DNA of 64,000 nt from Flaccisagitta enflata (GCA_965153355.1 OZ231126.1:46004001-46068000); one strand, 5' to 3'; positions 1 through 20,315 are shown, counted from the stretch's first letter. A program made the numbers and translations. Notes: generated from the letters alone by a model not told the origin.

Positions 1-39
1 ATTGTTAGAATTATTAATCAGACGTTCATGTTATGGACG

Positions 40-295
40 TGCTGATTCACTCGTGCAATACTATCGTTTTACTCAGAAAGACTTGCGCGATACAATGGTT
101 GTATTTAGCACGACTCGTGCAATTCTATCGTCTAAATCAGCACGACTTGCGCAATACAATGGTTGTATTGAACCCGACGCGTGCGATGGAATGGTTGTCG
201 TGCCCAATATAAAAATTGTATTGCCCAAACTTCCCTCAGTCGCGGATAAGATAAATAAAAACATTAATTAGATTTTGCACGACTACAAACTATTG
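40..295. repeat. Left subterminal repeat array (~31-bp period)
   Basis: Units GCACGACT(C/T)G(T/C)GCAAT with alternating tails CTATCGT and ACAATGGTTGTAT at ~47, 78, 107, 138 and 172. Confidence 0.75.
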
Positions 296-368
296 TGTCC
301 ACCATGTAATACCAAAACAAAAACAAAATGTATTAATCAATGTTTCACCATTGTCGTTAGGTACAGAC

Positions 369-1013
369 ATGGTGGAAATTCCTCTCGTTGACGACGATGG
401 CTCAACGTTGTCGACCCGGCGTTCCAACGGTTCTTCTCGCTCTTCCAGCGTCTCTTCTCACACTCACAGCGTTTCTTCTCGCCGTCCCAGCGTCGGAGAC
501 GATATGGACGACGAGGTGGAATCAGACTCGGTATACCGGTTCGCCGACGACCATGAAAGACGCGCATCGTTTCGTCTTTCTACCCGAGAAAAAAGATCGT
601 CCGCTAAGGTGGTGGAGGATGACGACGATGAGGAGGGTGATGCGGGAAAGGACACAAAACAAGCAAAGAAGAAGTTGGCGGGTCGGCCTTCCAAACCCAG
701 AACACCAAACAAGGCGACTTCGACTGCTAAACCCCATGGGACCACTGCGACTCCGAATAAATCGTCGGCGAAATCAGCGGTGGGGGAGGGGGGAAGGAAG
801 CGGGGAGGGAAGTCGGCGAGGGGGGGAAGAGGTGGGAAGAAATCGGCGGCGACCAAATATGAAGAAGACGCTCAGGACTTTATGAAATTTTTTGAAAACG
901 CGTCCCAAGCATCTCGGTCCAACTCGTCCAACGCGTCCAACTCCTCGGTTTCATTGGCGCCTCCCAATACCACACGAATTAGCTCGTTAAAACCGCCACC
1001 CGTTCCGTTGTAA
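369..1013 (+). CDS. Transposon-borne low-complexity protein (~214 aa): Ser/acidic N-half, Lys/Arg/Gly-rich C-half with GRP/RGG motifs
   Basis: ORF 351-1013 with first ATG at 369; GC/CpG-rich coding-like composition; no recognisable domain; may be spliced. Confidence 0.55.
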   Translation: MVEIPLVDDDGSTLSTRRSNGSSRSSSVSSHTHSVSSRRPSVGDDMDDEVESDSVYRFADDHERRASFRLSTREKRSSAKVVEDDDDEEGDAGKDTKQAKKKLAGRPSKPRTPNKATSTAKPHGTTATPNKSSAKSAVGEGGRKRGGKSARGGRGGKKSAATKYEEDAQDFMKFFENASQASRSNSSNASNSSVSLAPPNTTRISSLKPPPVPL

Positions 1014-1106
1014 ACATATGGTGTTCGTCTTCTTAGCATTCTTATTATTATGCTTTAGCTTTCAGACTTAACAATGATCATATCCGTTAATTTCCGTGGC
1101 CACCAG

Positions 1107-1340
1107 ATGGTGGTTGAACTTTCCTTCCGTGAGCTTGTCTTGATCGGGGCGTATGGTGGCGTTGGATTAGCGTTACATCGGCTTTGGGAACATCCGGGTT
1201 TTAGAGGTTAGATTGCATTTATTAATTGTCTGATTTCACTCCGTTAATGGCTATTGTCGTTGTTTATTCCGCGGCTTTTTAATTTTTTTTCGGTAGCTGC
1301 TGCCGTCAATTTCATCATTCGACGTTTGGACAGCAGATAA
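1107..1340 (+). CDS. Possible 47-aa two-exon peptide (1107-1206, 1297-1340): MVVELSFRELVLIGAYGGVGLALHRLWEHPGFRAAAVNFIIRRLDSR
   Basis: GT-AG intron 1207-1296 with a T-rich tract and compatible phase; ATG directly follows a CAG. Confidence 0.3.
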
Positions 1341-1501
1341 AAGTAACAAGTAGAGAAATCTTACAGATTTAAAAGATATAGGTAGTATACTTTTCATCAT
1401 CTCTTGTTTATTCCTGTTCTCATTCACTGTTGGTTATTGCTAACCAATTAGCAGTTTTTACATAAAACATAGTCAATGATTGCTTGCTTGCTTGCTTGAT
1501 T

Positions 1502-2076
1502 GTTCTTTGTGCATTAAGAACTGTAAAATGAAATTGTTCGCCAAATGAAAAACTTTGTAGGGACAAAGGGCCTGCCAGCCGAATTGCTCTGTCTGTATCA
1601 TGTATGTATGATTAATATTCGGACAGTATCTTTTTTGGGATGAAGTAAAGTGCTGAACAGTACAATTAATGTGCGCATGTGTGCGACTTTATTGCAAATA
1701 CGTACTGTTCTCTTTCACATGTAAAACTGGAAATAAGGACGATTTGAATCATGGGTCAATGGTAGTCATCCAACATACTTGACAGACAAGGAAGAAGTCG
1801 TGGTGGAGATCCAATGAAAAGGTAGTCGTGTTCATGTTGAAATTTGAAATGCCCTGGAAAGCAGGCACATGAATGAAGCCATTTGCTATACATATAAGAA
1901 TGTCGGGATTTCCCACTGGTCCACCGATACTTTATTTGCCGAGAGATTGGCGGCAATGACCCTGATTCCCCTGCATGTTTTTGGGTAAAGTTGAGGCAAA
2001 AGGAACATTTGGTCCAAGTTGTATATGGCAATTAGGCCCACTGCAATTACAGGTTCAGTAGAGTGGATGTCAATGT
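1502..2076 (-). pseudogene. Inverted, internally deleted, diverged copy of the transposase catalytic core
   Basis: The reverse complement aligns collinearly in blocks to 3273-4438. Example: 1551-1590 AACTTTGTAGGGACAAAGGGCCTGCCAGCCGAATTGCTCT vs revcomp(4331-4370) AACTCTGTAGGGACAAAGGGCCTGCCAACCAAATTGCTCT. Minus ORF 1756-2031 contains WTSGKS, as in the transposase. Confidence 0.9.
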
Positions 2077-2215
2077 GACAATGTGATATAATAATTGTTT
2101 TAGAACTGACCTCGTGCCTGGGTGAAATAAAATATGATAGAATAGAATGAAATAGAATAGAATAGACTAGCTTTTACAAGTATCATCAAATTTTTTTCAA
2201 ATTTTGCTGAACAGA

Positions 2216-4909
2216 ATGACTCTACGACAGACTCTCATTGACAAACTGTTATTCAAAAGTCAAAACAAAGTAAGAAGGCCTGTATGCGCCCTTTGCCACA
2301 AGAGGACAACAGCGACAGACTTTGTATCTGCTGAAATCCACGTCGACCAACACTATAGACGCATATTCAAGTGCCCTGTGTGTCAGGAATCTCTGCCTTT
2401 TTACACTGACCAACAAAACTATAACGCACTCAAACTACACTACCAATTTGTTGAGCCAAGCCACCAAATATGCCCCTATGAGGCGCTCACAAATAAACGT
2501 TGCGCAACAAGCGTCCCACATCTCGACTTTCACAGGGATCGAGGTGATATTTTATGGAAAGAGGAGCAGGAGAGGGAGGAGGACGTCGATGATATATTGG
2601 AATCCGATTCAGAAGATAGTGAGGATAGTGAGGATGGTGAAGTTGTTGACAATGACGAGGGAGATGTTTTTGTTCTTCATCATTGGGAGGATGTTGGTGA
2701 GAATAATTCAAGTGGTGGTGTTGGTGGTTGTGGTGGTGATGGTGGTGGTGGTGGTGGTGGTGGTGGTGGTGATGGTGGTGGTGGTGGTGGTGGTGGTGGT
2801 GGTGGTGGTGGTGGTGGTGGTGGTGGTGGCGGTGGTGGTCGATGCGGTGGTGGTATCATTCCAGATCATGTAATTACAATAATGGAGGAAACTGTAAACC
2901 AAATGACGAATACATACGCTGCCACGGAATGTCTTATTTCCTACGTTGTATCACAAACAATCAGTATTCTCAATGCCCTGCAATGTAACTTATCACAACA
3001 ACAGAAAAAACGCATGAACCAAATCAGAACCAGTTATGGTCGTGGAAGACAACAGAAACAATTACAAAATAATTATCGTGCAAGTGTAACTCTTCCCATA
3101 AGAAACGATATACTTTTGGACGAAAATGTCCAAGTGCATTTTTACAAAATCGACGAAATGTTGAAATTATGGTTGAAAAGTAAAGACAATTGCAATCGAT
3201 TGAAAGAATTTCATCAGAAACCCATCACGGCCGGCCAGTTCAATTCGATTAAAAATTCTGAAATATTTAGAGACATTGCCATCCACTCTGGTGAACCTGT
3301 AATTCCTCTGGGCTTGTACTGTGATGAGGTCTTACCGTTGCAGGCGTTGTATGCCCGTAACGCCAATTATAAGTTATATAATTTTTATATAGTTATCTTA
3401 ATTGAAGGACCAAACCAACGCAAGTTGGAACAAGTTTTCCCTTTATGCCTACTCTACACAAAAGATGTGGGGGAAGTGGGATTGAAGGTCATAACTGAGG
3501 CAATTGTATCTCGACTGAGAGATGTTGTCTCAAATGGCATTACATACAACGGTGACCACTATCAAGTCAGATTCTTTATGGTTATCGGCGATAACCTGAG
3601 CCAAAACCAACTCTGTGGGATAACACGATCATGGACAAGTGGGAAATCCTGTAGATATTGCCATTTCCGTATGGCGGATTTAGCAACTCCTAAGTCTGTG
3701 CAAGATATGGCACCAGCTGAACCGTGTACGTCTGAAGAATATATTGATGTCATTGCAGCAGAAGCAAATGACTTAATGCTTCCGTATGGCTTTACTCATG
3801 TGCCTGCTTTACATCGCATTCCATGGTTCCCCATGAACACGACTACCTTTTCATTAGATCTCCACCACGACTTCTTCCTTGGCTGCGCAGTAACTTGGAT
3901 GACAATCATCACTAATAGAATCGTTTTCGATTTACAATGGATCTCTGCTTCCTCAATGAAAAGTTTGTGGAAACGTTTCAAATTCCGTGGCCATGATTCA
4001 AAAAATCGTCCTTATTTCAAGTTTGACATGGCGAAGAAAACAGTCCATATATGTAATAAAGTCGCACACGTGCGCACATTTATTCTTCTGTTCAGCACTG
4101 TACTCTATCCGGTCATTGGAAACACGGCTGACCCTGTTTGGGTCTTCTATTTACAAGTCTTGTATCTAAGTCGACTTCTTCTCACTCTAAACCACACAAA
4201 CGAGACTTTAGAAGAAATGGAAGAAACGATAGTAACTACATTGACTTTGAGGATGAGTCTCACCAGAACCGCAGATGGACAGTATGATCCCAAAATAAAA
4301 TATAAAGAGCATAATCTGTGCCATTACCCAAGAGCAATTTGGTTGGCAGGCCCTTTGTCCCTACAGAGTTCTTCATTATGCGAACAATTCCACCAGTTCG
4401 TCAAGAGAGCTTTTGGAAACTCTCGTTGCACAAAGAACGTTCTATACACTATTCTCCGAAGAATTGACCTGAAACTACATGCGCGCAGTCAAGCAATCAT
4501 TGAACCAAGGAAGGTTAGTCGTTTAACAAGTGAAGAAGATTTACCACATGAAGCTTTAACTTTTTATCGAGGCTATAGAGCGGCTCAGTGCCTCAAAACC
4601 GTTGAGCACAACGGATACATGCTTCACCTCAACTCAGTTTATGGCCTGCCCAATATAGATGGGGAGCCAGATGGGCGTTTTTTCAGAATCCTAGGCATTG
4701 CCCAAAGTGACTCAGACATAATTCTCCTTTCAAAAAAGTTAACGGCTCTCCCAATTAAAGAATTGGGCATATTTAAAGTAAGAGAATCAACTTCAAGTGT
4801 TCAACGGCAGTTATTAGTCCCCTCTCTCGTTCTTCTCCAAGATTACCACATATGCAACGAATCAAACAGATTAAACGCCATAAGTGTAAGGAACTTGGAC
4901 TTGACTTAG
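2216..4909 (+). CDS. EnSpm/CACTA (CMC) DDE transposase, ~897 aa, with N-terminal C2H2-like zinc fingers
   Basis: Uninterrupted ORF (TTG 2204, ATG 2216). Motifs typical of animal EnSpm transposases: LGLYCDEV (D1), VIGDNL...SCRYC (D2 + CxxC), DLHHDFFLG, KEHNLCHYP...GPL...CEQFH (E). N-terminal CALC/CPVC fingers. Confidence 0.9.
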   Translation: MTLRQTLIDKLLFKSQNKVRRPVCALCHKRTTATDFVSAEIHVDQHYRRIFKCPVCQESLPFYTDQQNYNALKLHYQFVEPSHQICPYEALTNKRCATSVPHLDFHRDRGDILWKEEQEREEDVDDILESDSEDSEDSEDGEVVDNDEGDVFVLHHWEDVGENNSSGGVGGCGGDGGGGGGGGGGDGGGGGGGGGGGGGGGGGGGGGGRCGGGIIPDHVITIMEETVNQMTNTYAATECLISYVVSQTISILNALQCNLSQQQKKRMNQIRTSYGRGRQQKQLQNNYRASVTLPIRNDILLDENVQVHFYKIDEMLKLWLKSKDNCNRLKEFHQKPITAGQFNSIKNSEIFRDIAIHSGEPVIPLGLYCDEVLPLQALYARNANYKLYNFYIVILIEGPNQRKLEQVFPLCLLYTKDVGEVGLKVITEAIVSRLRDVVSNGITYNGDHYQVRFFMVIGDNLSQNQLCGITRSWTSGKSCRYCHFRMADLATPKSVQDMAPAEPCTSEEYIDVIAAEANDLMLPYGFTHVPALHRIPWFPMNTTTFSLDLHHDFFLGCAVTWMTIITNRIVFDLQWISASSMKSLWKRFKFRGHDSKNRPYFKFDMAKKTVHICNKVAHVRTFILLFSTVLYPVIGNTADPVWVFYLQVLYLSRLLLTLNHTNETLEEMEETIVTTLTLRMSLTRTADGQYDPKIKYKEHNLCHYPRAIWLAGPLSLQSSSLCEQFHQFVKRAFGNSRCTKNVLYTILRRIDLKLHARSQAIIEPRKVSRLTSEEDLPHEALTFYRGYRAAQCLKTVEHNGYMLHLNSVYGLPNIDGEPDGRFFRILGIAQSDSDIILLSKKLTALPIKELGIFKVRESTSSVQRQLLVPSLVLLQDYHICNESNRLNAISVRNLDLT
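2712..2854 (+). repeat. (GGT)n microsatellite in frame in the transposase (poly-Gly linker)
   Basis: Direct reading; the reading frame is preserved. Confidence 0.95.
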
Positions 4910-4923
4910 CATAAACTTAAAAC

Positions 4924-7900
4924 ATGTCGTCGAAGCGTTCGAAATTTTACAAAGAATGTCCCAACGCCAAATACGGAGCCACCCAGCGTGGAAACAAGCG
5001 CCATCGCGATAAACTTCTTCAAGAGGAAGACGACGACTATCAACCACCCTCGAAAACATCACGTCGATCAAACTGTGATCCTCATCAGGACGAAGAGAGC
5101 AGCGAGGAGGAGGAGACGGAGGAGGAGGAGGCGCCGTCGTCACGTGGTAAGGCCGTTAGGACAACTCGTCGTCAACGAAAACGACCAACATCATCACATC
5201 TCGAGGATGACGACGGTGCAGATGTGCCTGCCTTCACCCGCACTAAGCGGTCGCGTGCAGACGTTGGAACCGGTGACAATGTCCAGGAGGAGGTGGAGGA
5301 GGAACATAGGGTTGAGGATGAAGTCATGAGTGAGGAAGATGGAGGAGAAAGGGGCCAAGTTGGCGACGTCGGCGACGGTGGAGTTGACATCGGCGGCGGC
5401 CAAGATGAAGGCATCGGTGACGCGGAAGCACAAGGGATCTTCAATCAGTCTCAACAGGAAATGAAGAGACGCCGCATCGCAAAGATCGCAACCAACAATG
5501 GGATGAGCGCAACTGCTTTGAAGAAAATGTTGGAAAAGAATCCCGAGGCAAAGAATAGTTTCCTTGCTACAAGAGGTACGTTAGTTATTATTTTGTTTTA
5601 GTGCCATTGATGCTAAATTTTCTACTCTGTAAACTGGGCCAAAGTAGTTTATTGTTTGTACTCAATTCTTCGAAATTGCTTTAATAATTATATTTAAACT
5701 CGTCTAGTAATCATGTCTCATTTCGACAAACAATCTTCCATCACACACAATGAGTAATTGAATAATTACCTCATTCCCTCCAAACAGATCCTAGTCTGTT
5801 GCCGCCAGCAGCCTATAGATCGGCAGTAGACCCGGAAAACCCTCATCGAATGTGGCTGCAGCCGCCAGAAATGCATCCCGGGCCTGACGGAAACCCAGAA
5901 CCTCCCGCTCTGCCCTACGACCAGTTGTGGTGTCCCTTCGGTGGCAACGTGGGTTACTACGACAAAGACCGGGACGTTTACCACTTTAACACACTGGGCG
6001 ATCTGCACCTCGAAGGAGATGGGAACCCGGCGACGTTTGTACCTCAACAACTGCAAGCTGCGTCCTCAGGTACAGTTGAGCTTCACTTTAGCGCACCCGC
6101 CAATAAGGCATGACCTCTTAAAAGGCATGCAAGTTATTGTTAATGAGACATTTCATAGTTAAATGCGCTCTAGTGAAGCTCAACTGTAAATCTATCTTGC
6201 TTACTGACTTCCAAATTAAAACCGTTGTATTGGTACTTATTACATCTGTTGTATTTCCTGTTTCTATTAGGAGAGCTAACGTGTAAGGAACAGTTCGAGC
6301 TGTTGGCCAAATCAGGTGGTTTGACGAAATTTATTGAAGAAGACAAAGGGCTGGATGTCGCGCTGGAGATAATCGCGAAAGCTGTGAGTTCCACGCTTAG
6401 AGAATGGTTTTAATAATTTGCGTTTCCATTGCTAATTGGTGATATCGTTGCTAATTGGTGATATCATATAACCACATTTCCCATTTATATCTCAGCATGG
6501 CATGGACAACGTGAAGAAGGCGGAGAAAGAATTCATCCTGGCCGCTTGCAAACGCCTGTTCCATAACATCCAGGTCAGTGATGGCGCGTAGTGGTGTAGT
6601 GGTGTTATTGTGAGTTGTACAGCGCTTTCCCCACATGCATCCCCACATGTTTCATCCATTTTGTTATCTACTATTTCTACTTCAGGACGCATTGTTCCAC
6701 AAAGATTGTCATTTTGCGCCTACTCAGCCCACCTACTGGGAGTTCTTCTTCGGCGTCAACCAGCATGCGTTGAGAAGGGCAGGGTTCCCGGTGTTCCAAT
6801 GGCCTAACAAAATGGCAGAAATTCCGATTTCGTGCCTAATTCGGGACCGGTAAGTTTTGAAGGCATGAATTAAGTTACGACGCAATCATTATTTGCGAAC
6901 CCAGTGCAATGATTATACAAGCATAAACCAATTTCATTCTGGACAGACTGGGCCAAAACGGAGCCAATTACTCCAAGCTCCAGAGGTCCATGAAACTGAG
7001 ACTGGCCGAGGTCAAAGCCAGACGAAAGTTGACCAAACAGGACGTTGAAGAAGTGGCCAATCTCACCAGAGACATAAAGGACAACCAACGAAAACATTAC
7101 GCAAATTGGATGGCAGTCAAAGTGAAAGGCGGCAATGAGCAGGAGGAAAGGAAGATAAAGGCTGAAGCCGGGCACCAGTAAGCTCATCTTGTTGTTGTTG
7201 TTGTTTTGGTTGTTGATGTTGTTGGTATTGTTGTTGTTATAGTAGTAATCGTAGTTGTTGTCGTGCGATGCACTATTACGTCATACTGCCATTTTTAAGA
7301 ATAATTTGCCATTTCGTTTTTCAGTGAAGATCGCGCCTCTTTGAGAAAGAAATTCTACAATGACTCAACTTACAAGAAGACGTACCTGAGATTTATGGCC
7401 GTACATGGGGGGCTGGCCGTTATTGACGAGGGAACCGCCATCTCTAAAGAAATCGTCAGCGAAGATACAGACTCCATGGATGATGAGTAAGCATACATAG
7501 TCATGCATTACAATCAATAACCGAAACATATAATAATGTTAGAAGACTGACATAATGTTCGACTATCACTTTTCCTGATAGTGTGGTGGAAACCTCACAA
7601 GCCGGGCCAGCGACAAAAACGGTATATGGAGCAATCCGCTCCCCCTCGTTGACCGCTGAGTCCGTGGGCGACAATAACGAATCATCAAGTGCCACAAATG
7701 GTTCAACCGCCACAAATGAATCATCCACCGCAAAGAACACGTCCAACGAAGCTAGGATTGGCGGCTCTCACGGCGTGAGGTGATCTTTGAATATCCTTAC
7801 CAACTACCGCACATTGATTGTATACATATAACTCACAAAATTGGTAGGTCGTCGTAAATTATATTCATTGTATTATTTCAGAGGGGTTTCCCCAAACTGT

Positions 7901-10900
7901 ACTCCCGTTCGCACAAGCCAATCACAGACCACGTTCGAAGCACTGAATAGAGGTGGCAACGAGGACAGCAATGGCCATGACGTAGCCGAAACCGACGACG
8001 CACAGTTGGACGAGTTGGTCGGGTTGGTCGAGGCGGATGATGCACAGCAACGAGACAGCGATGACAGCAACAAAATGAAAAGCCGTCCTCGGCCCCATTC
8101 AAATCGCGCTGCTGAAGCTGAAAAAGATAGGAGCAAATCGATTGGCGTGACGAAAAACAAAAGAGGGTAAACTACTACAATACACTACAGACAATTTAAA
8201 ACAACAACAACAACAACAACACCAACACCAACAACAGAGACAAGAAGAAGAAGAAGAAGAACAAGAAGAACAAGAACAAGAAGAAGAAGAAGAAGAAGAA
8301 GAAGAAGAAGAAGAAGAAGAAGAAGAACAAGAAAAACAAGAACAAGAAAAAGAAAATCAACAACAAGAAAAACAACAACCACAACAACAATAACATTCTT
8401 GATTCAGATGTGCGCCACCCATTACGCGATCGGGGCGTCGCGTCGCGAGTACCACGGGATCAATTTTCAACGCCGCTCGTGGTGGCGAAACCGTTGACGA
8501 ACCCAGCCCGCCTGACGATGCCGAAAATGATCGGTTAGGCAACCTAGTGGGTGGCTCGCGGTCCCGTAGGAAACGTGCCGTTCGTCTTCCAAGGTATTTT
8601 GGGACAAATTGCAAAATTGTTGTGTCCAGTGAAACATATTATAGAGAAATGTTTTGCATTTATTTCACTGCTTCGTATTTTGCACATTTGCAGTTCCACC
8701 GCCCGGCCTGGCAATTTGACTTCAGTGGCGTCGAGTACAGGAATGGATTCCGGTGCAATGGATCCACAGTCATGCTCAACGGATCCGATGGAAGATGTGG
8801 CTCGTCGGTGAGTTGTGACATTTGATTGTGTACTAAAACGACAAGGCATTTTCTTCATATTGTATAACCAACCAAGAAAATTTCTTTATTTTGACAGCGT
8901 TGTGCTTGGCGATATAACGGCAATGGAGACTCCAAATGAATCATCGGCACCGCGGGAAAGGCAATACGCCCCTATCGATACGCCCGTCCCAACGGCCCAA
9001 CCCCTTGCGATCGTGAAGCAAAGCTTCTTCGAGGCTGTCAGGAACAGTGCTGAAAAGGAGGGCCGCGAGGAACCCCCAGAAAACCAAATCAATGAAGTCT
9101 GGAAGAGAATTGAAGACGCGCCGAAGGATAGCCCGACTAATTTCTACGATTACGTCTACAGACCACCCGGTCATGCACGCTTCGTGGCGGCCTATCAGTG
9201 GTTGACTTGTGAATCCACACTAGTGGTAAGTTGCGCTGGTTTTGTCCATTTTGCATGTTAACTCGAAACAATTTACTTATTACTGACTGACACAATTCAT
9301 ATGTTGTAATAACGCCCTCAGTTCATCAAAATGAGTCTGGACTTTGCGTTTCCCGGCGAGGCGAGGAAGTGGCACACAACCTTCGCGAAAGAAAAGGAAC
9401 TCCTGATGAAATTGATGGAGAAGCGACCAAAACTGCCAAAGGACGAGGGCCCCGTCACCAAGGAGTATCGGGCCCAAAGAAGTTCATTCATGCTGTTATT
9501 CAGCAGTGCAGTCAACGTCCTAGGCCAAAACCCAGAAGTGGTAAGGATTAACACTGGGATGTACATATAACAGAGTCATTTTGATAGTGTCATTTTGATA
9601 GTGTCATTTTGATAGTGTCATTTTGATGATGTGATTTGGATAATTATTTGGATTTCTGACCACCCTTTCCCACCACTAGGATCCTCGCGGATATCTGCCA
9701 TTTTTGTTCGAAGTGGACTTTACGAACGAACTCATCAACTACATCTTCAAGTACCACAACATCATTCAGATCAAAGGAGAAACGCCCAACGACGTTTACG
9801 ACATAGCGGCGTCGGGCATGTCGGAATTGCAGCACTTTCTCCTTCCAAAAGCAATGGACTATTTCCCGAAGGTCGAATACGACCCTAATGGAAGACCGCA
9901 CCCTTACCACGGTCATTACGTTGAAACGTGGTTGCGGATGATGTTGTCAGTGGACCCCGTGCAGGTATTTGACATGTCTTTGTTGTGTTCATACATGTGA
10001 GAATTGCCGTTGAGATTAGACAAAAATTGTAATGAAGTTTTAAAAAAAAAAATGTATACGAATAAAACAATAAATGTATAAATGTGTAGTGTTCATATAG
10101 ATGCATAATCTCATTTTTATCCCGTTAAAAAACTCTCATCATTGTTTTTAACTTACAACAAATGATGTATTGAGTCACCTCTATCGTCTTTCAGATCATG
10201 TTCGACGTCCTCGATGACGAAACGACACTGTCCACGCGTCCAATGGTGGTGTTGTTGAGGAGGGATCCGCATACTCGCTCTAAGGATCTCGGCGTGTCTT
10301 TCGACAAGAAAATCCGCTGGAAGATATCCCCAACAGACGATGCGACGGGGACGCGAGACGTGTTTGTGAGAGGAAACCTCTACACGTACGCCATGTCCTT
10401 TCTACGGATGTACCATATTGACCACACAGATGAAAACCGCTACCGCGCCACGCTGGATGCGTACTGGAATTTTTGGGAAATGTAAGTATGAATATTGTAG
10501 TGTTGATTGTTATTGTTCTTGTTACTGTTTTGATGATTATGCGATATGATAATATATGATTATGTTGCTTCTCATTAGGTAGATATAATGGTATGGAGAT
10601 TTTACTATTTACATCATAATGCTCATATTATACTGTTAACACAGTTTGACTAATATTACACTTGTCCATGTATTGCAGCTACGCGCTCCAAATCAGTCCA
10701 GAATTACGCATAAGCCGTAGCCAGCATCGCCTGCGAAACATCAACAAACTGAGGACAGTCCAAAAACATCATCGGTCCCAAACGGAAGCCTTGATGCAAC
10801 AAGCATGTCAAAGAATCATTAGGGAGGCGATGGAGTTTCGCAGAGAAAAGGGGTTACTCGACCCGCGGTCCGAAAGTTACTACCGTCGGCTCCAAGCTAT

Positions 10901-10964
10901 TGACGAAGAAGACGAGAAAGGCGGCCTGTCAGTGGCTTACGTACGAACCACTGACGACGACTAG
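4924..10964 (+). CDS. CACTA ORF2 (TnpA-like accessory protein), 16 exons, ~1289 aa
   Basis: Exons 4924-5575, 5788-6069, 6271-6383, 6496-6573, 6686-6849, 6947-7177, 7325-7486, 7582-7779, 7882-8166, 8408-8593, 8694-8807, 8898-9225, 9322-9540, 9680-9964, 10195-10481, 10679-10964. All introns are GT-AG, phases are compatible, the total is 3870 nt with no internal stop. The C-terminal AMSFLRMYH...YWNFWEIYALQI resembles, from memory, the C-terminal motif of animal EnSpm ORF2 (SAMD3-like) proteins. Confidence 0.8.
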
Positions 10965-11190
10965 GGTGATGAATGCTGAGCTGCAGTATGTTGATGAGTA
11001 AGCGTCTCATGGCCGAGCATCAAGTGCAAAACTGCCCCAAAATTCCCGCAGCTCATCACTCATGACAGCCTTACTGCGCTCGCATCCAAGTCATCAAAAT
11101 GCTAAACTTATTTCTCATGGTTCTATTTCCTGTTTTTTCTCAACTTATTTATCATGTTTAGGTAGTTTCTAGTTTCCCCCTGTAGATAAA

Positions 11191-11770
11191 ATGTCTTCAG
11201 AGTCGGCCTCAGAGTCTTCCGAGTCCACCTCCCCTTCCATACATGAGACAAAACGCTCGTGCGAGCGGCTTTTCTTTGCCATCAGACGTAAGAAAAAAAA
11301 ATTAAAGGAAAAGGAGAACATCGAGGAAATTGTTCGACAAACGTTGTCAGACATACTAAATGTCGTAGGTAAGAAGTGGTCAAGATTTTAAATTCTTTTT
11401 ATCCTTTAGCCAAACCATATTATTAATCATTAGTCATTCTACCCATTTTTTTCCCGAGACTTTTTTAGCTTTAATAGAAATGACATATCCATATTGTTGC
11501 AAGGTGTATGAACATGTAAGCAGATGTAGTTTGCACAGTATGGCACTGTCAATTATTTTGTAGCCAAAAAAGTCTCTGGCAAAAGTGGGTGACTTTGCAA
11601 AAACTCTTTTTTTAGCTGCACCCTCATCCTCCCCGACATTGGTGACAAGCACTGATGGTGAAATGACGGGGGACTCCTCCGACTCTGAGGTTTCCGACTT
11701 TTGGAGCGTCGGTTCAAAAAGAATGAGGACCTGGATTAGGTACTCTCGAGCGTTAGTCACGGGTGATTGA
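11191..11770 (+). CDS. Small two-exon protein (~110 aa; exons 11191-11368, 11616-11770), Ser-rich with an NLS-like RRKKKKLK
   Basis: GTAAG donor at 11369 and TTTTTTTAG acceptor at 11615; phase 1 joins the two ORF-track segments. Confidence 0.55.
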
Positions 11771-12176
11771 TCCTCCTCTACTCCATCGCCAGATATAGGC
11801 ACTGTCAATTCCGATTGATTTCTTCCGTTGTGGCGTTGTTACCTTGTGGCGTGGTTTCTGTGGCGTTCCAGCGATTTCTTTGTTTTCGTTTTTGGCGTTT
11901 TTCGTCTTCCAGCGTTTTCGGTTATTCCTTCTAGATGTTTAGTGATAATATAGATAGTAGTATACCGCGATAGTACTTTTACGTTCGTACCCATTTGTCA
12001 TTTTCATTTGGCGGGGCGAAAGCTAAAATCAGAAAATTTCCCGTAATCGCGAAAATTGTCATCAAAATAAACTGCGTTTGTGATACATTTCTGATTTTTA
12101 GTCCGATCAAAGCTTCAAGCTGTGATAAATTCTACTCATTTGTTTTTTGACAGGCAGGCACAACTAAATTCCAAAT

Positions 12177-13482
12177 ATGTCTTTGATGTTGCCTCGAGAA
12201 ATGCTAGACAATCTCATCCTGGATGTACGCTGCCTCATATGTTTGGCTCTGCCAACCGACGCACACATTTGCCGGAAATGCCACAAACCCTTTTGCTACA
12301 GCTGCATCGGCACCGCTTTCGAAGTCTACGACGTCGCGTCCTGCCCACACTGCAGGTAATGTCTGTTACAGCGATGCTTTGTACATATGTTGTAACTATT
12401 CTTTAACTGTTGTATTTTGTTCCCAATGGGATGATATTTGTTATGATTGCTACTGCACTTATGAAAATGAACCGGAATGTCATATGGTTTAACTTGCTGG
12501 GGGCCAACACCAACATGGTGGTCAAAGGCTCAAAGCTGCCAGTTAGCATCCTCTGCCAAGAAGAAGAGGACTATGACGTTTTGTTATTCCAAATTTCACT
12601 CGATTTTTTTGTGTATGTTCATCCCCTCCAACAAAACAAAAGCGTGCCTTAAAATTGAATGGTTTTCTAATTTATTTGTTCATACTTTTTTATTCACAAT
12701 GTTAATATGGTTTTTCTGTAGTCATGAGAATGGCGATATTTATTTGGGTGAGAAACTGGTTTTTTCTTATTTATTAGGCAGGTTTGGGCGAACTTAATCA
12801 AAAAAACGGCAATATGCAAATGAGGTTTTTATCTACTGAGACTAGCCGAAAAAAAAACTTGAAAGCAACACATGTCTGTTTTTAGATGCGTCCTCGCATG
12901 TCTATAAGAGGGTCTGTCCCTTAGTAGGTATGTATGTATGTATGTATGTATGTTGGTTGGTTGGTTGGTTCATATTTGTTATGCTCGCAACTGTACTTAT
13001 AACATATGCTATTTTCATGGGCAGGTTGGAGCTTCCCTTGGAGGGTTTTGTGCGTTCTCCAACGTTCAACATCATTGCTAAGACGCTGAAGAACGCCAAA
13101 CCGGCCTGCGTCGTCCATGACTATGCAGAGATCGAGATCTTTTGTGTTGACTGTTCCAAGGAGGGTTGCCGCTCATGCTGGATGTAAGTCATGTTTGTGT
13201 TTGTTGTTGGTGGGGGAGGCGTGTGGGGTTGGGTGATGGAATGGACTACTGTATGTAAAAATTTAGTTGTTTGAGATTAATATTTTGAGTAGCGGATATG
13301 TAAAGAAGTTTTCATGTGATTGGTTCTACAGAGAAAAACATTCCGAACACTACGTGGTTCCGCTGGAAGCCAAGGACAAAGTGGCGCCTTCACCGACGAC
13401 GCCGCCATCATCGCCATCGTCGCCGCCGCCACCTCCGCCGTCTCCGCCGGCGCCGGCGCCACCATCAGCCTCAGCAAATTGA
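12177..13482 (+). CDS. Mini-TRIM 1: TRIM37-like RING + B-box2 + Pro/Ser tail (162 aa), putative E3 ubiquitin ligase
   Basis: Exons 12177-12355, 13025-13183, 13332-13482. RING CLICLALPTDAHICRKCHKPFCYSC...CPHCR has Cys spacing like TRIM37 [25 protein letters not shown]...CPHCR. B-box CVVH..FCVDC..GCRSCWIEKHSEHYVVPL. Confidence 0.85.
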
Positions 13483-13558
13483 ACTCGTTTCGTTGTCAGT
13501 AGTCGGGCAGTCATGGTTAAGCAAAGCGTATGATGCGTATGCGTATGATGCGTCCAGA

Positions 13559-13672
13559 GCCTTCACGCTCCGTCAGGGAGACCGCGTCGCGCAGCTCATC
13601 TTAGAGACGTTTGACAATTTGGATTCCATGCGCGTTTTGTCCATTGGGGCTTCTAGCAACAGTGGACGTTAA
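13559..13672 (+). pseudogene. dUTPase C-terminal remnant
   Basis: AFTLRQGDRVAQLILETF...SNSGR* matches trimeric dUTPase motif IV (GDRIAQL). Motifs I-III are absent and motif V is degenerate. Confidence 0.65.
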
Positions 13673-14078
13673 CGTCGACGTTTTGCTTCGCAAGCCAATG
13701 CTGTCGGGAACCCATGGACTAAATTGAATGGGTTGCGACATTAGTGAAAGCGTTTTGTGCAATGCTAACAGTTAGTATCCTGTGATAACTGTTTTGTCCT
13801 AGTTAGTATATAACAATTATATTTGCCTCGACCGTCTTGTTTGCCGCCGTTTTAAAAAGCAAAGGCCTGGCCTAAGATAAGTATTACATTTGTGTCGATA
13901 ATGTTGAGCAACCATTTCATGTTCTCATCCAATTTTGGTTTTTGTCACTTCCAGTTTTCGTTTCTGTTCCGTTTTTCGTGTTTCGTTTCCGTTTTTGGAT
14001 ATTGTTGCCATTGATTTTTCACTGAAACATGGTTTGTGTTTCCCAGGCACGATTACGTAAATCAATATCAAAACAGAC

Positions 14079-14847
14079 ATGCCTTTGTTGATGACGAGAA
14101 AGCGCATGGAAGAGGCGGAAAAGGAGTTTCGATGCGGCATCTGCTTCTTGCTGCCAACTGAGCCGCACTTATGCGAGGTATGCGTCCAAACCTATTGCTA
14201 CGACTGTGTCGCGACGTTGATGGTCATGTACGAGCACAAGCGCTGTCCATATTGCAGGTATTATATGTTATAGGTATGATTGTTGTTATAGGAAATGAAT
14301 TAGTAACAAGATATTGCTGAATCGTTTGCAATACTTTGATCATATTTTACGCCCCTAGGTGAAACTAGCAGATTGCCGCAATACTTTTTACATATGGCAT
14401 TATCACGCGCAGGTCGGAGGTTACCATGGAATCGTTTCTACCCGCTCCGTTCATGACCACCCTGATTGAGGTTTTCAAGACAGTGAAGCCCGCCTGCGCG
14501 ATCCATAACGTCAAACCGCTGTCGATGTATTGCACAATCTGCGAGCTCGAGGGTTGCGACGCTTGCTGGCAGTAAGTCCTGTTTGTTTTTGTTGTACAGG
14601 ATAGGTATGAATACATTCCTAGTTTAAGATATGTTTCGGTTGCCTTGTCAGTGTAATTTGTGCTATTTTCACTTGACATGGTTTGGTAATTGATGTTTCC
14701 TCTCATCGGCTTTACAGGGAGCGTCATGTTGGACATCACATTGTTCCACATGCACCCGTTCAGCGGCCTTCAGTGTCGACGCCGCCGCCGCCGCCCGCCT
14801 CGCCATCATCGCCGGTAACGGGCTACGGAAGCGATGAAGTGGATTAA
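14079..14847 (+). CDS. Mini-TRIM 2: TRIM37-like RING + B-box2 + Pro/Ser tail (155 aa)
   Basis: Exons 14079-14257, 14413-14571, 14718-14847. RING FRCGIC..HLCEVC..YCYDC..CPYCR; B-box CAIH..YCTIC..GCDACWQERHVGHHIVP. Exons 1 and 2 have the same lengths (179/159 nt) as in paralog 1. Confidence 0.85.
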
Positions 14848-15327
14848 AAATTGTAAAAGATTAACGGGATACCGAAAGTATTGCCCCGTTAAAATTTCTA
14901 GTATGACATTGGGCCGTTATTGTACTGATAGTTGCAGTGTTAACAACTATCGCGCATCGTTTTGTTTGTTTACTGTATTTCTGTTTTCCTGGCGTTAGTC
15001 GTCCAGTCATAGTTTAACACAGCGTAGTGACTGTATGATGGACTGTTATGCCACACGTTATGGCATTGTAATATTGGGATCGTTACATTCGTTTTCTTTA
15101 TTTCTGTTTCCAGTGTGATATTTCTGTTTTGTTATTATTAAAAACCCAAACAACAGAAACTACAACCATTTATTTCCCACGTTTTGTTGATTTGTGTAAG
15201 CAACAAATTTGTTCGTGTCTGCTTTTGCTAGTAGCTGTGATAATTTTGTTAGCTCAGTCAGAACAATGGGCGTTCGTTTAAAATGATTATAGTAACTGTC
15301 AGATCCAGTTTAATGGTCTTGGCAAGA

Positions 15328-15558
15328 TTAGTCACGTACACGCGACTGTACTCCTTGCCGTGTCGGTCGGTCGGTCGGTCGGTCGGTCGGTCGGTCGGTC
15401 GGTCGGTCGGTCGGTCGGTCGGTCGGTCAGTTGGCCGGCCGGTCGGTCGGTCCGTCCGTCCATGCGTCTGTCCGTCACATTGATAAATTCCGCCCTAATT
15501 TTGCAGTACTGCTCCTGCCGAACCGTCCGCGACTGGATTGCCGTGTATCCGGCCTTGT
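15328..15558 (+). mobile_element. Helentron-associated (HINE/DINE-like) non-autonomous element nested in the CACTA element
   Basis: TTAGTCRCGT..ACGCGACT 5' hairpin, (GTCG)n microsatellite and 3' end GCCGTGTATCCGGCCTTGT, all shared with many copies in the window. Confidence 0.65.
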
Positions 15559-15636
15559 ATTAGTGAACTGCTATAGCCAGCAAGGAAACTACCCTGCGCT
15601 CAGGGTAGTTTCTTTGCTGGTTTTTTTTTACTGGGT

Positions 15637-15990
15637 TCTCGGCTATACAATTTTTGTATTCGGCTATACAATTATTGTATTTATTATGGGTTCTGGCGCT
15701 GAAATACAATTTTTGTATTTTTTTTTCCTGCTCGCTGCCTGCTCCTTTTTTATTCAATTATTGTATAAATTATGGAATACAATAAATAAATATCGTCGCC
15801 TTTTTTTATACAATAATTAAATATCGTCGTTTTTTTATACAATTTTTGTTTTTTCCTATACAATTGCTATACAATCGTCATACAACTCGTGTATTTGCTG
15901 TACAACTGCTGTACAACTGCTGTACAATTCGTTGTATTATCTAAAATACAATAACGTCCGTTGCTGTACAACACGACGATATTTATTTAT
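15637..15990. repeat. Right subterminal repeat region
   Basis: Repeated ATACAA-N3-TTGTAT palindromes, TACAACTGCTG and AAATATCGTCG motifs. Confidence 0.7.
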
Positions 15991-16363
15991 TGTATTTTTG
16001 GAAATTATTTTGAGTGTATGCAAACAGATTATTGGACTAATTGAACGAAAAACTGTGTCGTGCGCTTGATTGCAGGGGGTGTATAAAATTGAGTCGCTTT
16101 TGATTCCCCTCCCCCTGCCTTTGATTTTCTTCCCCGCGTCGCGTGGGATCACGTTTTAAAATATCTATGATTTTCTTTCCCATGGAGCTATAAAACAGTG
16201 TACTCTTTTTTTGTTATATGAACGTCATTTTTTGGACTAGCCTTCAAAGTTCTTAAATTTTCAGCAGTTTCAAGGCTCCAACGTTCCTAAATTGTTCTTA
16301 ATTCAAACGCAGTTTTTAACCTTCAGTTAACAATGTTCTTAATTAGTTAAGATTTATCATTAA

Positions 16364-17259
16364 GGCTTACATTTCCTCAAGATAGGCGACTAATTGAAAA
16401 TCTGTTTTCATGATGATTGGACTAATATGCGTACTGAGGGTCTGTATTTCAATTTTCGACTGTATAGCACTGGCCTGACCCGAATTACAAAGCAAAAACA
16501 AAATCAAGAATGCTTTGGCTAAGTTAAGGGGAAAAAATGAAAATTTTTAATGTATCAGTGCAGGATATGAACAACAGACTAATGAATCCGTCTGTCCTTC
16601 CTTAATCACAAATTCTCCGTCCAATGTCAATGTTTCAAAAAAATCAATTTCTATTCTCACCTTGCGCATTATCACAGCGCTCATGTCAGGCAATCTACTC
16701 ACTAGCCGCAGACGCTGACTGCTTTCATGAATTGTGCTTTAAAACTGATAGTTAGGGAGGCTAAAAAAAAGTTGATGAAAAAAATTGTTCATGAATTGTA
16801 TCTTTACCGTGTATTTTCTTTCGATTTTCATTTTAATGAATGACAAAATGATGGTAATTTTCTAGACGCTCGTTAGCCTGACTGGGGCAACGTAGGAAGC
16901 TGAAATTTTTACTGAAGATAGAGAAGACATGTGGCCAGGGTAGACCTGGAACAAATTCCCAAAAAAGCTACTAGCTATTGGCTACATTTTACAGATTTCT
17001 TCTTGGATTTATTGTATGTAAAATAATAAAATTGGAATTTTTTTACAGGTCTACCCTGGCCACATGTCTTGTCTATCTTCAATAAAAATTTCAGCTTCCT
17101 CCGTTGCCCCAGTCAGGCTAGCGAGCGTCTGAAAAATTGCCTATATTTGGGTTTTTTCAATTTTCTGAAATGTTTTGAAGGGGTTTCTTACACTAGTATT
17201 TGACATTCTATAAAAGAAAAAAAAATTCAGGGTAACTTCATTTTGAAGCAACGATAGCC
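16364..17259. mobile_element. MITE with TTAA flanks and GG..CC ends (Kolobok-like), with an internal ~85-bp inverted repeat
   Basis: TTAA|GGCTTACATTTCCTCAAGAT ... ATTTTGAAGCAACGATAGCC|TTAA; internal inverted repeat 16864-16948 / 17046-17130. Confidence 0.5.
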
Positions 17260-17593
17260 TTAAGGAGAAAATAAAGGAAAATGTCAATAAGCAGCAGAAA
17301 TGTCAATAAGCAGCAGATTTAAACGTTTTAAGTGAATTAAGATCAATGAAATTAGAAAGATACATACGATATAAAGTGAGACATTATTTGCTGAATTCAA
17401 AAAATACAGAGTATATATAATTATCTATTTACAATTAAAAAAAAGCCCAAAAAAAGATGTTCTTAGATTTTTAAGATTATAAACCTTATGTTTTCAAATT
17501 TTTCAAAAAATAAAGCCTTCCAATGTTCTTAGCATGTTCTTGAATTTTTGACGATTTGAAGCCTAGCGTTCTTATAAACTTGGTTCTCAAAAA

Positions 17594-17800
17594 ACAAGGC
17601 CAGATATACGGCTACCCCAGTCGCGTGCGGGTGGGCAGGGGCCATATTTGAGGTCAGTGGAGTATTTGGGCAGGAGCGGTAGAGCCAAAAACCCCATAAA
17701 CGCTGAAAAAGTAAAGTGTGACGGATCGACAGACAGACGGACGGACCGACGGACGGACCGACAAAGCGGGGTGTAGAGTCGCGTAGCACGCGACTAAAAA
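17594..17800 (-). mobile_element. HINE-like element, family A
   Basis: ACAAGGCCAGATATACGGC...(GACG/GACC)n...GAGTCGCGTAGCACGCGACTAAAAA. Confidence 0.7.
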
Positions 17801-20315
17801 GTGTAGTTAAGGTTTAGATAGTGTTGAATTGTGTTTTACTAATCAGTTTTTATCATTTATGATTTGGTACTGCCAAAAGATATATTTTCCCCGAATCTTG
17901 TTTCTCTTTCCCCCCCTTTCATTTCCTTCCCCATCTCCAAACCCCCCCCCCCCGTGGAGGGGGGGAACTCAATTTTTTACAGTTAAGCCTGATTGTAAAT
18001 TGATATGAGGGATAAAATTTTGCTGATTGAATGTTGGTGATGCAATTTGATCAGTTCAAGTATTTCGATTCCATCTTACCTGATTGTCATGGTCCGAGCG
18101 CTTAGCTCCATTCAGAGGTGTGAGAAATGACAGCGGTGTGACCATTTCAAGGACAGACACCGTTTTTTGTGTCATTATAAAGTCAGACTGGTCTTTCATT
18201 CGTCCAAATTCAGCGGAAATTGCTAGTATCATTTTGCTTAGAGTTAGCGCCGCAAAGATATTCATTTTTATGATATAGGAATATTACTCTTCAAAACTCT
18301 TCAAAATATGCGTTCTCTGGTAGAACCAGTCTGCAATGAAATCCTCGCCGAGGCAAATCCGTCTTTTTCCAGGTTTTTGTGTTTTGGCAGACCCACAGCC
18401 TTGAAATTCTCAAGTGATACATCGAAACGTGTTCGTGGATTTGGTTGGCGGACTAAATCGATTGTTGCCGACAGAGTTGTCGAAGCGGTTGACCGCTTGC
18501 GATCGGGAGGATAGGATAGCTACTAGCTTTTCAACTACAAATGGACGCTAAGCGGTGGAAGCGGCGTGAAAATTGACCGCTTCCACAACTCATGTGCGAA
18601 ACACAAGTCCCTTCTGATATGTTTTTTTTTGTAATTCAAAGGATGTAGGGATGTACGGACGGACAAATGTATGGACGTACAGACAGACAGATTCCCCCTG
18701 TGTTCCACAGGACTTCGTCTCCTTTGGGGCCGCTGCCCAAAAAACAAGGTCGTTTACATTATCCATTCAAATATGAATGGTGATCAATACGGATTCAGTA
18801 TTGATGTGGGTTTTTGTCATGATGCTTGTCATGACATTTGCATGGATTGTGATACTGTTGTTATTGTTGTCAATACCAGTAATGGCGGCTATCGCCGTGA
18901 TAAAAAAGGGTTGTAAGCATTGGACACTTTTCACCAAGCTTTTATCTTCAGTCCCTGCAGTTTTTTTTTATTTGTTAGATCAGATTAAGAGTAATTGTAT
19001 GTATTGATTGCAATGAAAATCAGAGAAAAATAGAACTGTGCCAAATGAGCTAGATGGGCTAAAATACTTTCTTGTATTTGCATGCTCAATTAAAACATTT
19101 ATTCTATTTATTCATCCTACAAAAAATCAGAAAAAAAGGTCGCCCAAAGGCAATATGTGGTCAGCAATACCCGTTGCCCTGCTTTGAGTGATTGTGAATT
19201 GGAGGGAGGGGAAGCAGGGCAGCGGTTCCAAAGGGGACAAAGTCCTATAGAACACAGGGGGACTTTTGTTCATCCTGCCTGAAGAAAGGGATGAGATGCT
19301 ATCGAGGGCTAACTGAAGGCCTTCTAGAGCTCAAACTGAGGTCTAAGAAGGCTGACTTGAGGCTTGGGAGAACTGGATTAAGGCTTGAAATCAGAGGACT
19401 TATTTGAAGCCTAGGAGCAATAAATTCCGGCTTAGATGGCTGATTTGAGGCCTGAAAGGCCTAAAAAACACCTCAAAATGAGCTGCCTATGCTCATAAAC
19501 ATGTTTCTTGTATTTGCATTAGGGATGTGGAAGTGATTGACCTCTTCTGTTCTGGTGGGTGGGATAGCTACTGGTATTTGAAATACAAAATGGAAGCAAA
19601 AGCGCAAGCGGAGGCGGTGGAAGCGGCATGCATGCTCAAACAAACTTAAATACACTCCTTTATTGATCCTACTTAAAATCATAAAAAATTGAAAATTAAT
19701 TTGAATTTTTCCTAAAGAAATTTTAAAATTCATAACGCAAAAATATTTGCCATAGAGCGCTCTGCTTGGCACCAAATAAAAGAGAATTATCAACTTTACT
19801 TACCCTATCGATTTCATCGGAGGACACATTTGGCCAATCAAAAGACGAAACTTTCACATAAGAAAATGAAAACCCTGTTTTTCTCAAAAAGTCGAAGATT
19901 GACTTCGACTTTTTCCCGATAAAACAAAACTATGCAATCCCTGGCAACTGCACCAAGCAACTCCAAGGCAACCCCAGACATCCCCGAGCACCTCAGGATG
20001 TAATGGCTTATTTGACTTTACACCTGTAGATTCACCATGAACATTTGTCACAAAACCCAATGATCTTATCAAGTTTTTTTCTCCCATTCTTTTGAATCAA
20101 GCATGTTTGTTCTTTAGTGCAAAAATGCAGGGGTGTCACCTCTAAATCACCATCTTTGCCTGTTTCGCCTATGCAGAATAACAGTGATACGCACACAATA
20201 CAACTCGTCATGACAGCAGGTGGTAAACAAGCAGAAGAACACCGAGACGAGAGAACCAAGAAGGATGAAAAAGTTTATCTAAAACGAGAAGAAGTACATG
20301 AATATTCCACCTTTG

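Follow-up and report, generated by a model that had tools for sequence, protein, structure and literature searches.

Positions 1 to about 16081 of the window, the whole 64-kb stretch of DNA that was analysed, are best read as the larger part of a single cut-and-paste DNA transposon of autonomous type, EnSpm/CACTA-like and within the CMC/CMCT clade, apparently present in one copy in the repeat-rich genome of a marine eukaryote, probably an animal. We put the probability of this reading at roughly 0.6. The left end of the element lies outside the window. It is probably an EnSpm-like element with an unusual gene content, for which we infer the single-element boundaries and the mobility. Since the arrays bracket all genes, a single large multi-gene element is the most parsimonious reading; for now it is a lead rather than an established system, because it comes as a single copy with putative ends only.

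To our knowledge, CMC elements outside plants are short one-gene transposons. Should this 16-kb copy and its intact genes (five or six, intron-bearing) hold, animal CACTA-like elements can carry cargo, like some fungal relatives. The transposase would also supply a natural example of a RAG1-fold enzyme to which a BAH-like reader is fused, and would thereby inform the question of how enzymes of the RAG type gain chromatin targeting.

Gene content

The genes were observed directly in the window (Table 1), and all intact ones (A, transposase, C, X1 and X2) lie on the plus strand. The initial annotation had counted at least six co-oriented intact-looking genes; five stand, but the sixth, gene E, is only a two-exon guess without a Pfam family. 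Gene A is rich in Ser, has acidic as well as basic tracts, showed a GRP (AT-hook-like) core by eye and matched 0 Pfam families at E ≤ 0.1.

Table 1. Features of positions 1 to 16081 and their coordinates in the window.
Feature	Positions	Strand	Description
Left array	49-230		32-nt periodic repeats; two exact and one 1-mismatch copies of the 15-mer
Gene A	369-1013	+	Single-exon ORF, 214 codons
Inverted transposase fragment	1528-2076	-	Same subfamily; internally deleted, frame-broken; 4-5 blocks, about residues 354-727
Transposase gene	2216-4909	+	Uninterrupted 897-codon ORF, one exon, 897 aa
Gene C	4924-10964	+	16-exon model, 1289 aa, reads through without stop
Gene C, exons 1-8	4924-5575, 5788-6069, 6271-6383, 6496-6573, 6686-6849, 6947-7177, 7325-7486, 7582-7779	+
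Gene C, exons 9-16	7882-8166, 8408-8593, 8694-8807, 8898-9225, 9322-9540, 9680-9964, 10195-10481, 10679-10964	+
Gene E (possible, small, Ser/Glu-rich)	11191-11770	+	Weak two-exon model: 11191-11368, 11616-11770
Met-less ORF overlapping gene E	11437-11838	-	134 codons
Gene X1	12177-13482	+	Exons 12177-12355, 13025-13183, 13332-13482; 162 aa; RING finger, B-box, Pro-rich tail
dUTPase-like stretch	13490-13669	+	Motif-IV-like GDRVAQLILE only; frame differs from last exon of X1
Gene X2	14079-14847	+	Exons 14079-14257, 14413-14571, 14718-14847; 155 aa; X1 paralogue, same exon plan
Nested high-copy repeat	15332-15561		(GTCG)n tract and conserved tail of about 60-80 nt
Right array	15640-16000		Three exact and three 1-mismatch 15-mers, many ATACAA/GTACAA half-sites
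Inverted pair in right array	15776-15798 / 15974-15996		Perfect, 23 nt; 221-nt unit
Putative right terminus	16040-16081		Ends ...GTG

Gene C starts 15 nt past the transposase stop. All 15 of its predicted introns are GT-AG with compatible phases. A Pfam search with 10 exon ORFs gave no family, the TnpA families included, and no homologues were found, not even diverged ones, leaving gene C an orphan, whereas the transposase has eight clusters of homologues. RNA-library contigs read straight across at least four predicted introns, and among the 15 contig joints listed (of 63) 0 coincided with a predicted intron; no spliced RNA was seen in them.

X1 and X2 share 37% identity, and the zinc ligands (Cys/His) are all kept in both. 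Pfam detected the RING finger (E 2.2e-4 and 8.2e-4) and the B-box (E 0.0026 and 0.0021) in single exons, in every case under the gathering score. TRIM-type proteins combine RING, B-box and coiled coil; after the B-box, X1 and X2 have no coiled coil but end in about 45 Pro-rich residues. The duplication is old (dS about 1), so either the element's lineage would have carried both genes since long ago or the two would have been captured together.

The dUTPase relic reported earlier is poorly supported: its Pfam match (E 0.0071; 16.6 bits, the cut-off being 22; residues 70-111 only) is sub-threshold and covers one of five conserved motifs; the closest PDB dUTPase chain gave E 0.094 over 29 residues. 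A virus-transposon fusion or endogenous viral element, with RING, B-box and dUTPase as viral genes on a CACTA backbone, is very improbable: the dUTPase-like motif, a CpG content different from the host's and the RING-finger and dUTPase genes of several large DNA viruses would suit it, but in Pfam 0 of 20 ORFs/exons hit a family of capsid, polymerase, packaging or integrase proteins, the predicted introns of X1, X2 and gene C are canonical spliceosomal ones, and no relative of the transposase occurred among 2.9 million viral contigs. With gene C matching no family, the lack of a viral hallmark gene is a provisional result. The virus-like cargo claimed for this region had that sub-threshold motif as its sole virus-type match in the 20 ORFs/exons and is not supported.

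Subterminal arrays and ends

The arrays were also observed directly. The palindromic 15-mer ATACAA-N3-TTGTAT occurs five times exactly in the 64 kb, always at 90-168 or 15645-15718. Allowing up to one mismatch gave 11 matches against 0.25 expected, a number reached by 0 of 100 shuffles, and the three 250-nt bins richest in half-sites, of 256, are those at 15751, 15501 and 1. Short-repeat subterminal arrays at both ends, an EnSpm/CACTA feature, are therefore present. The arrays match in this short motif but not beyond it: local alignment between them scored 33, against 35 for the best of 200 shuffles, so the "matching" arrays of the initial annotation agree in their binding-site-like unit only.

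Termini of EnSpm/CACTA elements read 5'-CACTA...TAGTG-3', with CAC...GTG across the wider clade, and target-site duplications are 3 bp in EnSpm/CACTA and 2-5 bp across the clade. The putative right end at 16081 reads ...GGGGGTG, which fits CA..TG or CAC..GTG and not TAGTG. Metagenome depth and repeat content both shift between about 15940 and 16108. The tail of the nested repeat has seven further copies elsewhere in the window, and contigs have loose ends at 15558 in three of the four runs covered. On the left side a DNA contig reaches 504 nt past the window start with unchanged depth, so the left end may lie farther out than the array suggests.

The CpG observed/expected ratio is 1.04 for 1-16081 and 0.59 for 16082-64000, and the right flank consists of simple repeats and very high-copy repeats. 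This confirms the earlier description of a CpG-rich region set in different flanking DNA, and it lends the region a foreign or young appearance.

Transposase

Cys/His clusters at the N-terminus of the transposase are followed by a linker of acidic residues and poly-Gly. Next comes the RAG1-like DDE core (about 220-765) with D370, D459, C479, C482, H699, H703 and E723, and a BAH-like domain (about 765-890) closes the protein. In 131 sequences D370, D459, C479, C482, H699 and H703 were invariant and E723 was at least 90% conserved. C(2)C plus H(3-4)H between D and E is the signature reported for EnSpm, Mirage, Chapaev, Transib and RAG1 (PMC12730594). The transposase carries this signature and belongs to the CMC/CMCT clade (EnSpm/CACTA, Mirage, Chapaev, Transib) on the basis of signature, fold and weak Pfam links through its relatives.

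The AF2 model (pLDDT 88.9, pTM 0.90) matched the RAG1 core in Foldseek (E 3e-11). Against RAG1 461-1008 it gave Z 20.5 (rmsd 5.0, 463 aligned), and against HzTransib Z 17.0; the predicted catalytic core thus has the RAG1/Transib-like fold. Sequence-level searches against RAG1 or Transib gave no match. The BAH-like domain folded alone reached pLDDT 91.2; against 48,161 chains, the first 15 of 50 rows were all BAH (Z 8.7-5.8), and the best Foldseek value was only E 0.072.

Pfam gave no match for the 897-aa protein, and Transposase_21 (PF02992) was absent even at E ≤ 10. Relatives at E ≤ 1e-3 numbered 1918. Their Pfam links are Transposase_21, DUF4218 and Plavaka: 14 of the 89 distinct relatives scanned (2/30 and 12/60 in two sets) matched Transposase_21, with a best E of 9.2e-8, and 4/60 matched DUF4218. 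The atlas neighbours include a cluster with PF02992 in 15% of its members. The label CACTA/EnSpm element is supported at the level of the clade, by signature, fold and weak Pfam links, but the putative end is not TAGTG and the transposase has no Transposase_21 match of its own.

Four blocks at 1529-2076, just upstream of the transposase gene, are 84-89% complementary to 3273-4392 within it. In tblastn this fragment gave 55-86% amino acid identity in several frames, with the reading frames broken. These blocks bear out the antisense module noticed before, and no other transposase pieces occur in the 64-kb window.

Copy number and alternative explanations

As far as position 13340 the DNA metagenome depth was flat, at about 20-42 (19.9-42.2) in 17 of 20 bins; these are the lowest values within the 20 kb covered, and eight long contigs had a depth of 24-31. 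The copy number looks like one, which speaks against the family proposed earlier. With a single copy by depth, there is no second copy showing that the cargo moves with the ends. Scans of public contigs recovered neither the locus nor relatives.

The depth profile also bears on the best-surviving rival, which we consider unlikely: a smaller element (arrays or ends of its own, the transposase, perhaps gene C) lying beside host genes E, X1 and X2, with the right array as another small non-autonomous relative or MITE that shares the binding motif. Depth was about 25 to 13340, rose to about 43-54 over 13341-15341 and was 49 at 15638 and 140 at 15939. At the left array it was 24, and a rise confined to the right array side would fit a separate small element there. 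The 221-nt unit with its perfect inverted ends points the same way, as do the age of the X1/X2 pair, expected of host genes, and the lack of counterparts of gene C and the RING genes in the clusters of transposase relatives. Against it, no array or terminus-like structure was found within 11-15.3 kb, and the CpG ratio stays at 1.0-1.3 through 10-16 kb, falling only after 16.5 kb. The listed variants of X1 and X2 (2 synonymous, 5 non-synonymous) are also unlike those of constrained host genes.

Improbable too, and ranked behind the smaller element, is a fixed host locus, in which a domesticated CMC transposase and host genes would share an unmethylated gene island and the arrays would either be regulatory or be left over from an ancient insertion. 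The single-copy depth agrees with it, as does the presence of the stretch, or part of it, in 20 of the 24 runs listed, which come from 9 studies. Intact subfamily relatives in marine assemblies (98, 88, 77, 67, 53, 52, 51 and 44% identity) keep the transposase architecture down to 44% and could be orthologues in related species; the BAH-like reader domain would suit a host protein as well. Yet in the window's transposase two near-invariant arginines are replaced through CpG-to-TpG changes, R504C (Arg-to-Cys) and R709W (Arg-to-Trp). The 16 coding variants listed between the window and the metagenome contigs (4 synonymous, 12 non-synonymous) stand in a nearly neutral ratio, a dead inverted fragment of the same gene lies alongside, and having palindromic arrays at either end is characteristic of transposons.

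For the single large element, a copy with little decay agrees with the intact ORFs, the lack of CpG depletion and a polymorphism that looks neutral. To this extent the initial annotation's "young" is supported. Its "possibly active" does not agree with R504C and R709W, the high-copy repeat nested near the right end or the RNA-library result.

Proposed mechanism

For the proteins of the element we infer the following roles; the self-regulation and host-interaction modules named in the initial annotation are conjectural. The transposase, with its RAG1/Transib-type DDE core and C(2)C/H(3)H zinc module, would use a nick-hairpin reaction to cut ends of the CAC...GTG type. The ends would be recognised, through the ATACAA-N3-TTGTAT sites in both arrays, by a partner protein, for which gene A or gene C are candidates. 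Gene C may share the transposase transcript, as it sits directly behind that ORF like TnpA with TnpD in plant En/Spm. The BAH-like domain may tether the transposase to chromatin, X1 and X2 would be passenger genes, and the inverted fragment may give a hairpin RNA or be merely a repair scar.

Only tentatively, as a reading of low probability, do we extend this to an EnSpm-like transposon of an animal that has a core of two genes as in plants, an acquired pair of RING/B-box (E3-ligase-like) genes, a hairpin-forming transposase fragment and a RAG1-fold transposase with a BAH-type reader, so that end-binding, chromatin-targeting, ubiquitin-pathway and self-silencing parts would move together over all 16 kb. 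Equally tentative, as part of that proposal, is the expression of the transposase ORF and its downstream multi-exon partner from one transcription unit.

Comparison with known systems

The element resembles plant En/Spm (CACTA; TnpD and TnpA) in its DDE transposase with a C(2)C/H(3-4)H module, in the short repeats, resembling binding sites, that are arrayed subterminally at both ends (putative sites here) and in a second multi-exon gene head-to-tail with the transposase ORF. It differs in that the transposase itself misses Transposase_21 and gene C has no TnpA family match, in its putative non-TAGTG end, in three to four further genes and in its apparently single copy in a marine, probably animal, genome. 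The RAG-like fold is a further resemblance, as Arabidopsis SPM TnpD is reported to have one (bioRxiv 10.1101/2024.04.02.587720).

With animal Chapaev and Mirage the element shares the clade, by catalytic signature, and an animal-type genome. Chapaev and Mirage are known as one-gene elements of a few kb, unlike the present element. The Transib transposase and RAG1 are the top structural matches, with the same order of D, D, C(2)C, H(3-4)H and E. Unlike them, the transposase lacks a sequence-level match to either, its relatives link to other Pfam families, and it has additional BAH-like C-terminal and zinc-finger N-terminal parts.

Fungal CMCT/KDZ transposons are reported to carry TET/JBP dioxygenase cargo (PMC12730594). 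The present element is like these carriers in its broad clade and in having an extra enzyme or regulator gene inside its ends, and unlike them in its cargo (RING/B-box genes and an orphan gene), its non-fungal host and its putative co-mobilisation.

By analogy with Mu killer, the element's inverted and incomplete second copy of its transposase gene could yield a hairpin RNA. In Mu killer-type inverted duplications, an inverted partial transposase copy gives rise to hairpin RNA against the element. The present fragment differs in its position within the element, in its divergence of 11-16% and in being internally deleted.

Overall reading and gene content

The best reading (probability about 0.6) of positions 1–16081 of the window is one EnSpm-like element that is present once, spans at least 16 kb and carries an unusual set of genes. 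All genes of this interval lie on the forward strand, with the exception of an inverted transposase fragment. The gene models are predicted from sequence alone, and Pfam was run on single ORFs or exons.

Predicted features of the candidate element (window positions)
Feature	Position	Strand	Basis
Gene A, 214-codon ORF	369–1013	+	ORF call
Inverted, internally deleted transposase-gene fragment	1528–2076	−	84–89% complementary to four blocks of 3273–4392; broken frames
Transposase, 897-codon ORF	2216–4909	+	ORF call
Gene C, 16 exons, 1289 codons	4924–10964	+	GT-AG exon chain, stop-free
Gene E, weak two-exon model	11191–11770	+	Predicted from sequence
X1, three exons: RING finger, B-box, proline-rich tail	12177–13482	+	Sequence model
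X2, three exons, paralogue of X1: RING finger, B-box, proline-rich tail	14079–14847	+	Sequence model
Nested high-copy repeat with (GTCG)n tract	15332–15561	.	Depth, repeat copies

Transposase

Pfam gave no match for the transposase itself. A total of 1918 relatives were found at E ≤ 1e-3; Transposase_21 was matched by 14 of 89 distinct family members, and in a second set DUF4218 and Plavaka were matched by 4 and 2 of 60 members, respectively. Across 131 aligned sequences, D370, D459, C479, C482, H699, and H703 were invariant and E723 was at least 90% conserved. PMC12730594 gives the same catalytic signature for EnSpm, Mirage, Chapaev, Transib, and RAG1.

The AF2 model of residues 216–897 (pLDDT 88.9, pTM 0.90) matched the RAG1 core with a Foldseek E of 3e-11. 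In the structural comparison, the Z score was 20.5 over 463 aligned residues, with model positions 5–550 corresponding to RAG1 461–1008; HzTransib (Z 17.0) and the P-element transposase (Z 13) followed. The family profile against PDB sequences matched only C2H2 fingers from the N-termini of relatives, and RAG1 was absent from these matches. A comparable resemblance to RAG is reported for Arabidopsis SPM TnpD in a preprint (bioRxiv 10.1101/2024.04.02.587720).

The last 130 residues, folded alone, gave a pLDDT of 91.2. When 48,161 chains were searched without bias, the best 15 of 50 matches to this segment were all BAH domains. As their Z scores were just 8.7–5.8 and the best Foldseek E was 0.07, the putative BAH-like C-terminal domain is a consistent lead, short of proof.

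Compared with its 98%-identical relative, the window copy showed Arg504→Cys and Arg709→Trp, both at near-invariant positions and both of the CpG-to-TpG type. CpG o/e in the transposase gene (2001–4000) was 0.69, against 0.93–1.34 in the rest of the element. The low CpG o/e and these two damaging substitutions hint that methylation is directed against this gene. A (GGT)n tract at 2700–2850 gives the transposase a poly-Gly linker some 45 residues long. Since the equivalent position in P0156, a relative with 52% identity, is also occupied by a Gly-rich linker, this is a conserved feature and not a recent microsatellite expansion.

Gene C and the RNA libraries

Gene C starts 15 nt past the transposase stop codon, and its exons were chosen at canonical GT-AG sites. 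Pfam on 10 exon ORFs found no family, a PDB sequence search with three exons returned nothing meaningful, and Atlas scores did not exceed 0.78. The word-based protein search gave one 95% identical fragment at near lengths and none among longer proteins. In these searches gene C had no detectable relative. A 14-nt tandem unit (14-nt spacing, copies 82–100% alike) was observed at 9572–9641, within predicted intron 13.

Three metatranscriptome contig sets gave thin cover (depth about 1–8) that included introns and intergenic DNA. RNA-library contigs passed straight through predicted introns, for example 6847–7179, 9598–9948, 10470–10896, and 12981–13402, and none of the 15 joints listed for the metatranscriptome contigs matched an intron. 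This signal is ascribed to carried-over DNA or to unspliced RNA and supports no conclusion on expression.

Two DNA joints, 2582>5107 and 5132>11290, were rejected as unreliable, with sides of 22–28 nt in simple acidic-codon repeats. The second comes from one DNA contig whose depth (23.5) resembles single copy, and it would remove nearly all of gene C. With a shorter side of just 28 nt of simple sequence, this joint may be artefactual; if genuine, it would represent a deletion derivative.

RING/B-box genes and the viral question

X1 and X2 share 37% identity, a common exon plan, and every zinc ligand. Their dS was saturated at about 1 with a dN/dS of about 0.57, and the duplication is old. Their Pfam matches were sub-threshold because the scan covered single exons only. 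Two contigs from one sample, one of DNA and one of an RNA library, skip a 60-nt stretch downstream of X2 (14864–14923, AC..GT ends); it is an indel polymorphism and no intron.

The initial annotation had described virus-like cargo and a dUTPase relic. Pfam on ORFs and exons found no viral hallmark, and the dUTPase came down to just one motif below threshold. Searches with the transposase and its subfamily profile gave no relative among viral contigs or among JGI metagenome contigs. The virus-like description is not supported.

Ends, arrays and nested repeat

Across the 64 kb, the palindrome ATACAA-N3-TTGTAT occurred five times without mismatch, twice at 90–168 and three times at 15645–15718. 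Allowing one mismatch raised the count to 11 (0.25 expected), a number reached by none of 100 shuffles. The top three of 256 bins for half-site density were the window's opening bin and two at the right array. Similarity between the left (49–230) and right (15640–16000) arrays beyond this 15-mer was not above shuffles, and a 24-nt left-end word had no match in JGI metagenome contigs. After the right array, at about 16081, comes a putative terminus reading ...GTG; past this point, depth in the DNA metagenome went from tens to thousands and CpG o/e dropped. The left terminus lies outside the window.

The nested repeat includes a tail of about 60–80 nt at 15479–15561, conserved at 79–85% identity beside (GTCG)n/(GTCC)n tracts. 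Further copies lie at 40433–40511, 40726–40804, 24172–24227, 47247–47296, 22013–22059, 23588–23647, and 23131–23183, and contigs diverged at 15558 in three of four runs compared (11, 20, and 42 records). The tail is a very high-copy host repeat family. Rfam and tRNA (ARAGORN) scans of 1–20000 gave no match, which leaves a tRNA-SINE origin of the nested repeat unsupported; by ARAGORN its tail is not tRNA-derived.

Depth, copy number and age

Matching stretches of the window occurred in 20 of 24 public runs listed, from nine studies, mostly marine metagenomes. Of the 20 bins as far as position 13340 in the DNA metagenome (run X1, distinct from the gene X1), 17 had a summed depth of 19.9–42.2, and the other three contain simple repeats. 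Eight long contigs (926–1977 nt aligned) had depths of 24–31 and 3–18 differences from the window. Depth was 43–54 at 13341–15341, and most flank bins reached hundreds to tens of thousands. As nothing lower occurred in the 20 kb, we infer that about 25 is the single-copy depth. No transposase piece beyond those in the table was found in the 64-kb window.

Intact transposase relatives in marine assemblies showed 98, 88, 77, 67, 53, 52, 51, and 44% identity, so the subfamily exists somewhere, in this or a related species. Sixteen of 28 listed variant positions in 1–15700 (328 more exist) fall in coding models; four are synonymous and 12 are not, close to the ratio under neutrality. CpG o/e was 1.04 inside the element and 0.59 outside. 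Taken together, depth, variants, CpG o/e, and relatives fit a little-decayed insertion evolving neutrally, unlike constrained host genes. The family had also been proposed to be young and possibly active; activity is not supported, and two near-invariant arginines of the transposase are changed.

The poorest fit to the one-element reading is a rise in depth confined to the right array, together with a contig that extends 504 nt beyond the window start with no change in depth. The main alternatives are both unlikely: a shorter element lying next to host genes and, slightly less likely again, a domesticated locus.

Flanking DNA

The window is eukaryotic. Beyond the candidate element it contains microsatellites, a fragment of a reverse transcriptase, and arrays of C2H2 zinc fingers. 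The host is probably a marine animal. A 300-codon ORF at 41460–42359 (−) matched reverse transcriptase (RVT_1, E 5.1e-14), a retroelement fragment. Two adjoining long ORFs rich in C2H2 zinc fingers at 51361–53493 (−; zf-H2C2_2, E 3.6e-107 and 1.4e-37) probably form a single KZNF-like gene, of the host or derived from a transposon, that is broken by a stop. The right flank carries one pair of inverted repeats at 16846–16962/17032–17148 (117 nt, 88%) and another at 18693–18738/19217–19262 (46 nt, 87%); both resemble MITE-type elements and lie in high-depth DNA.
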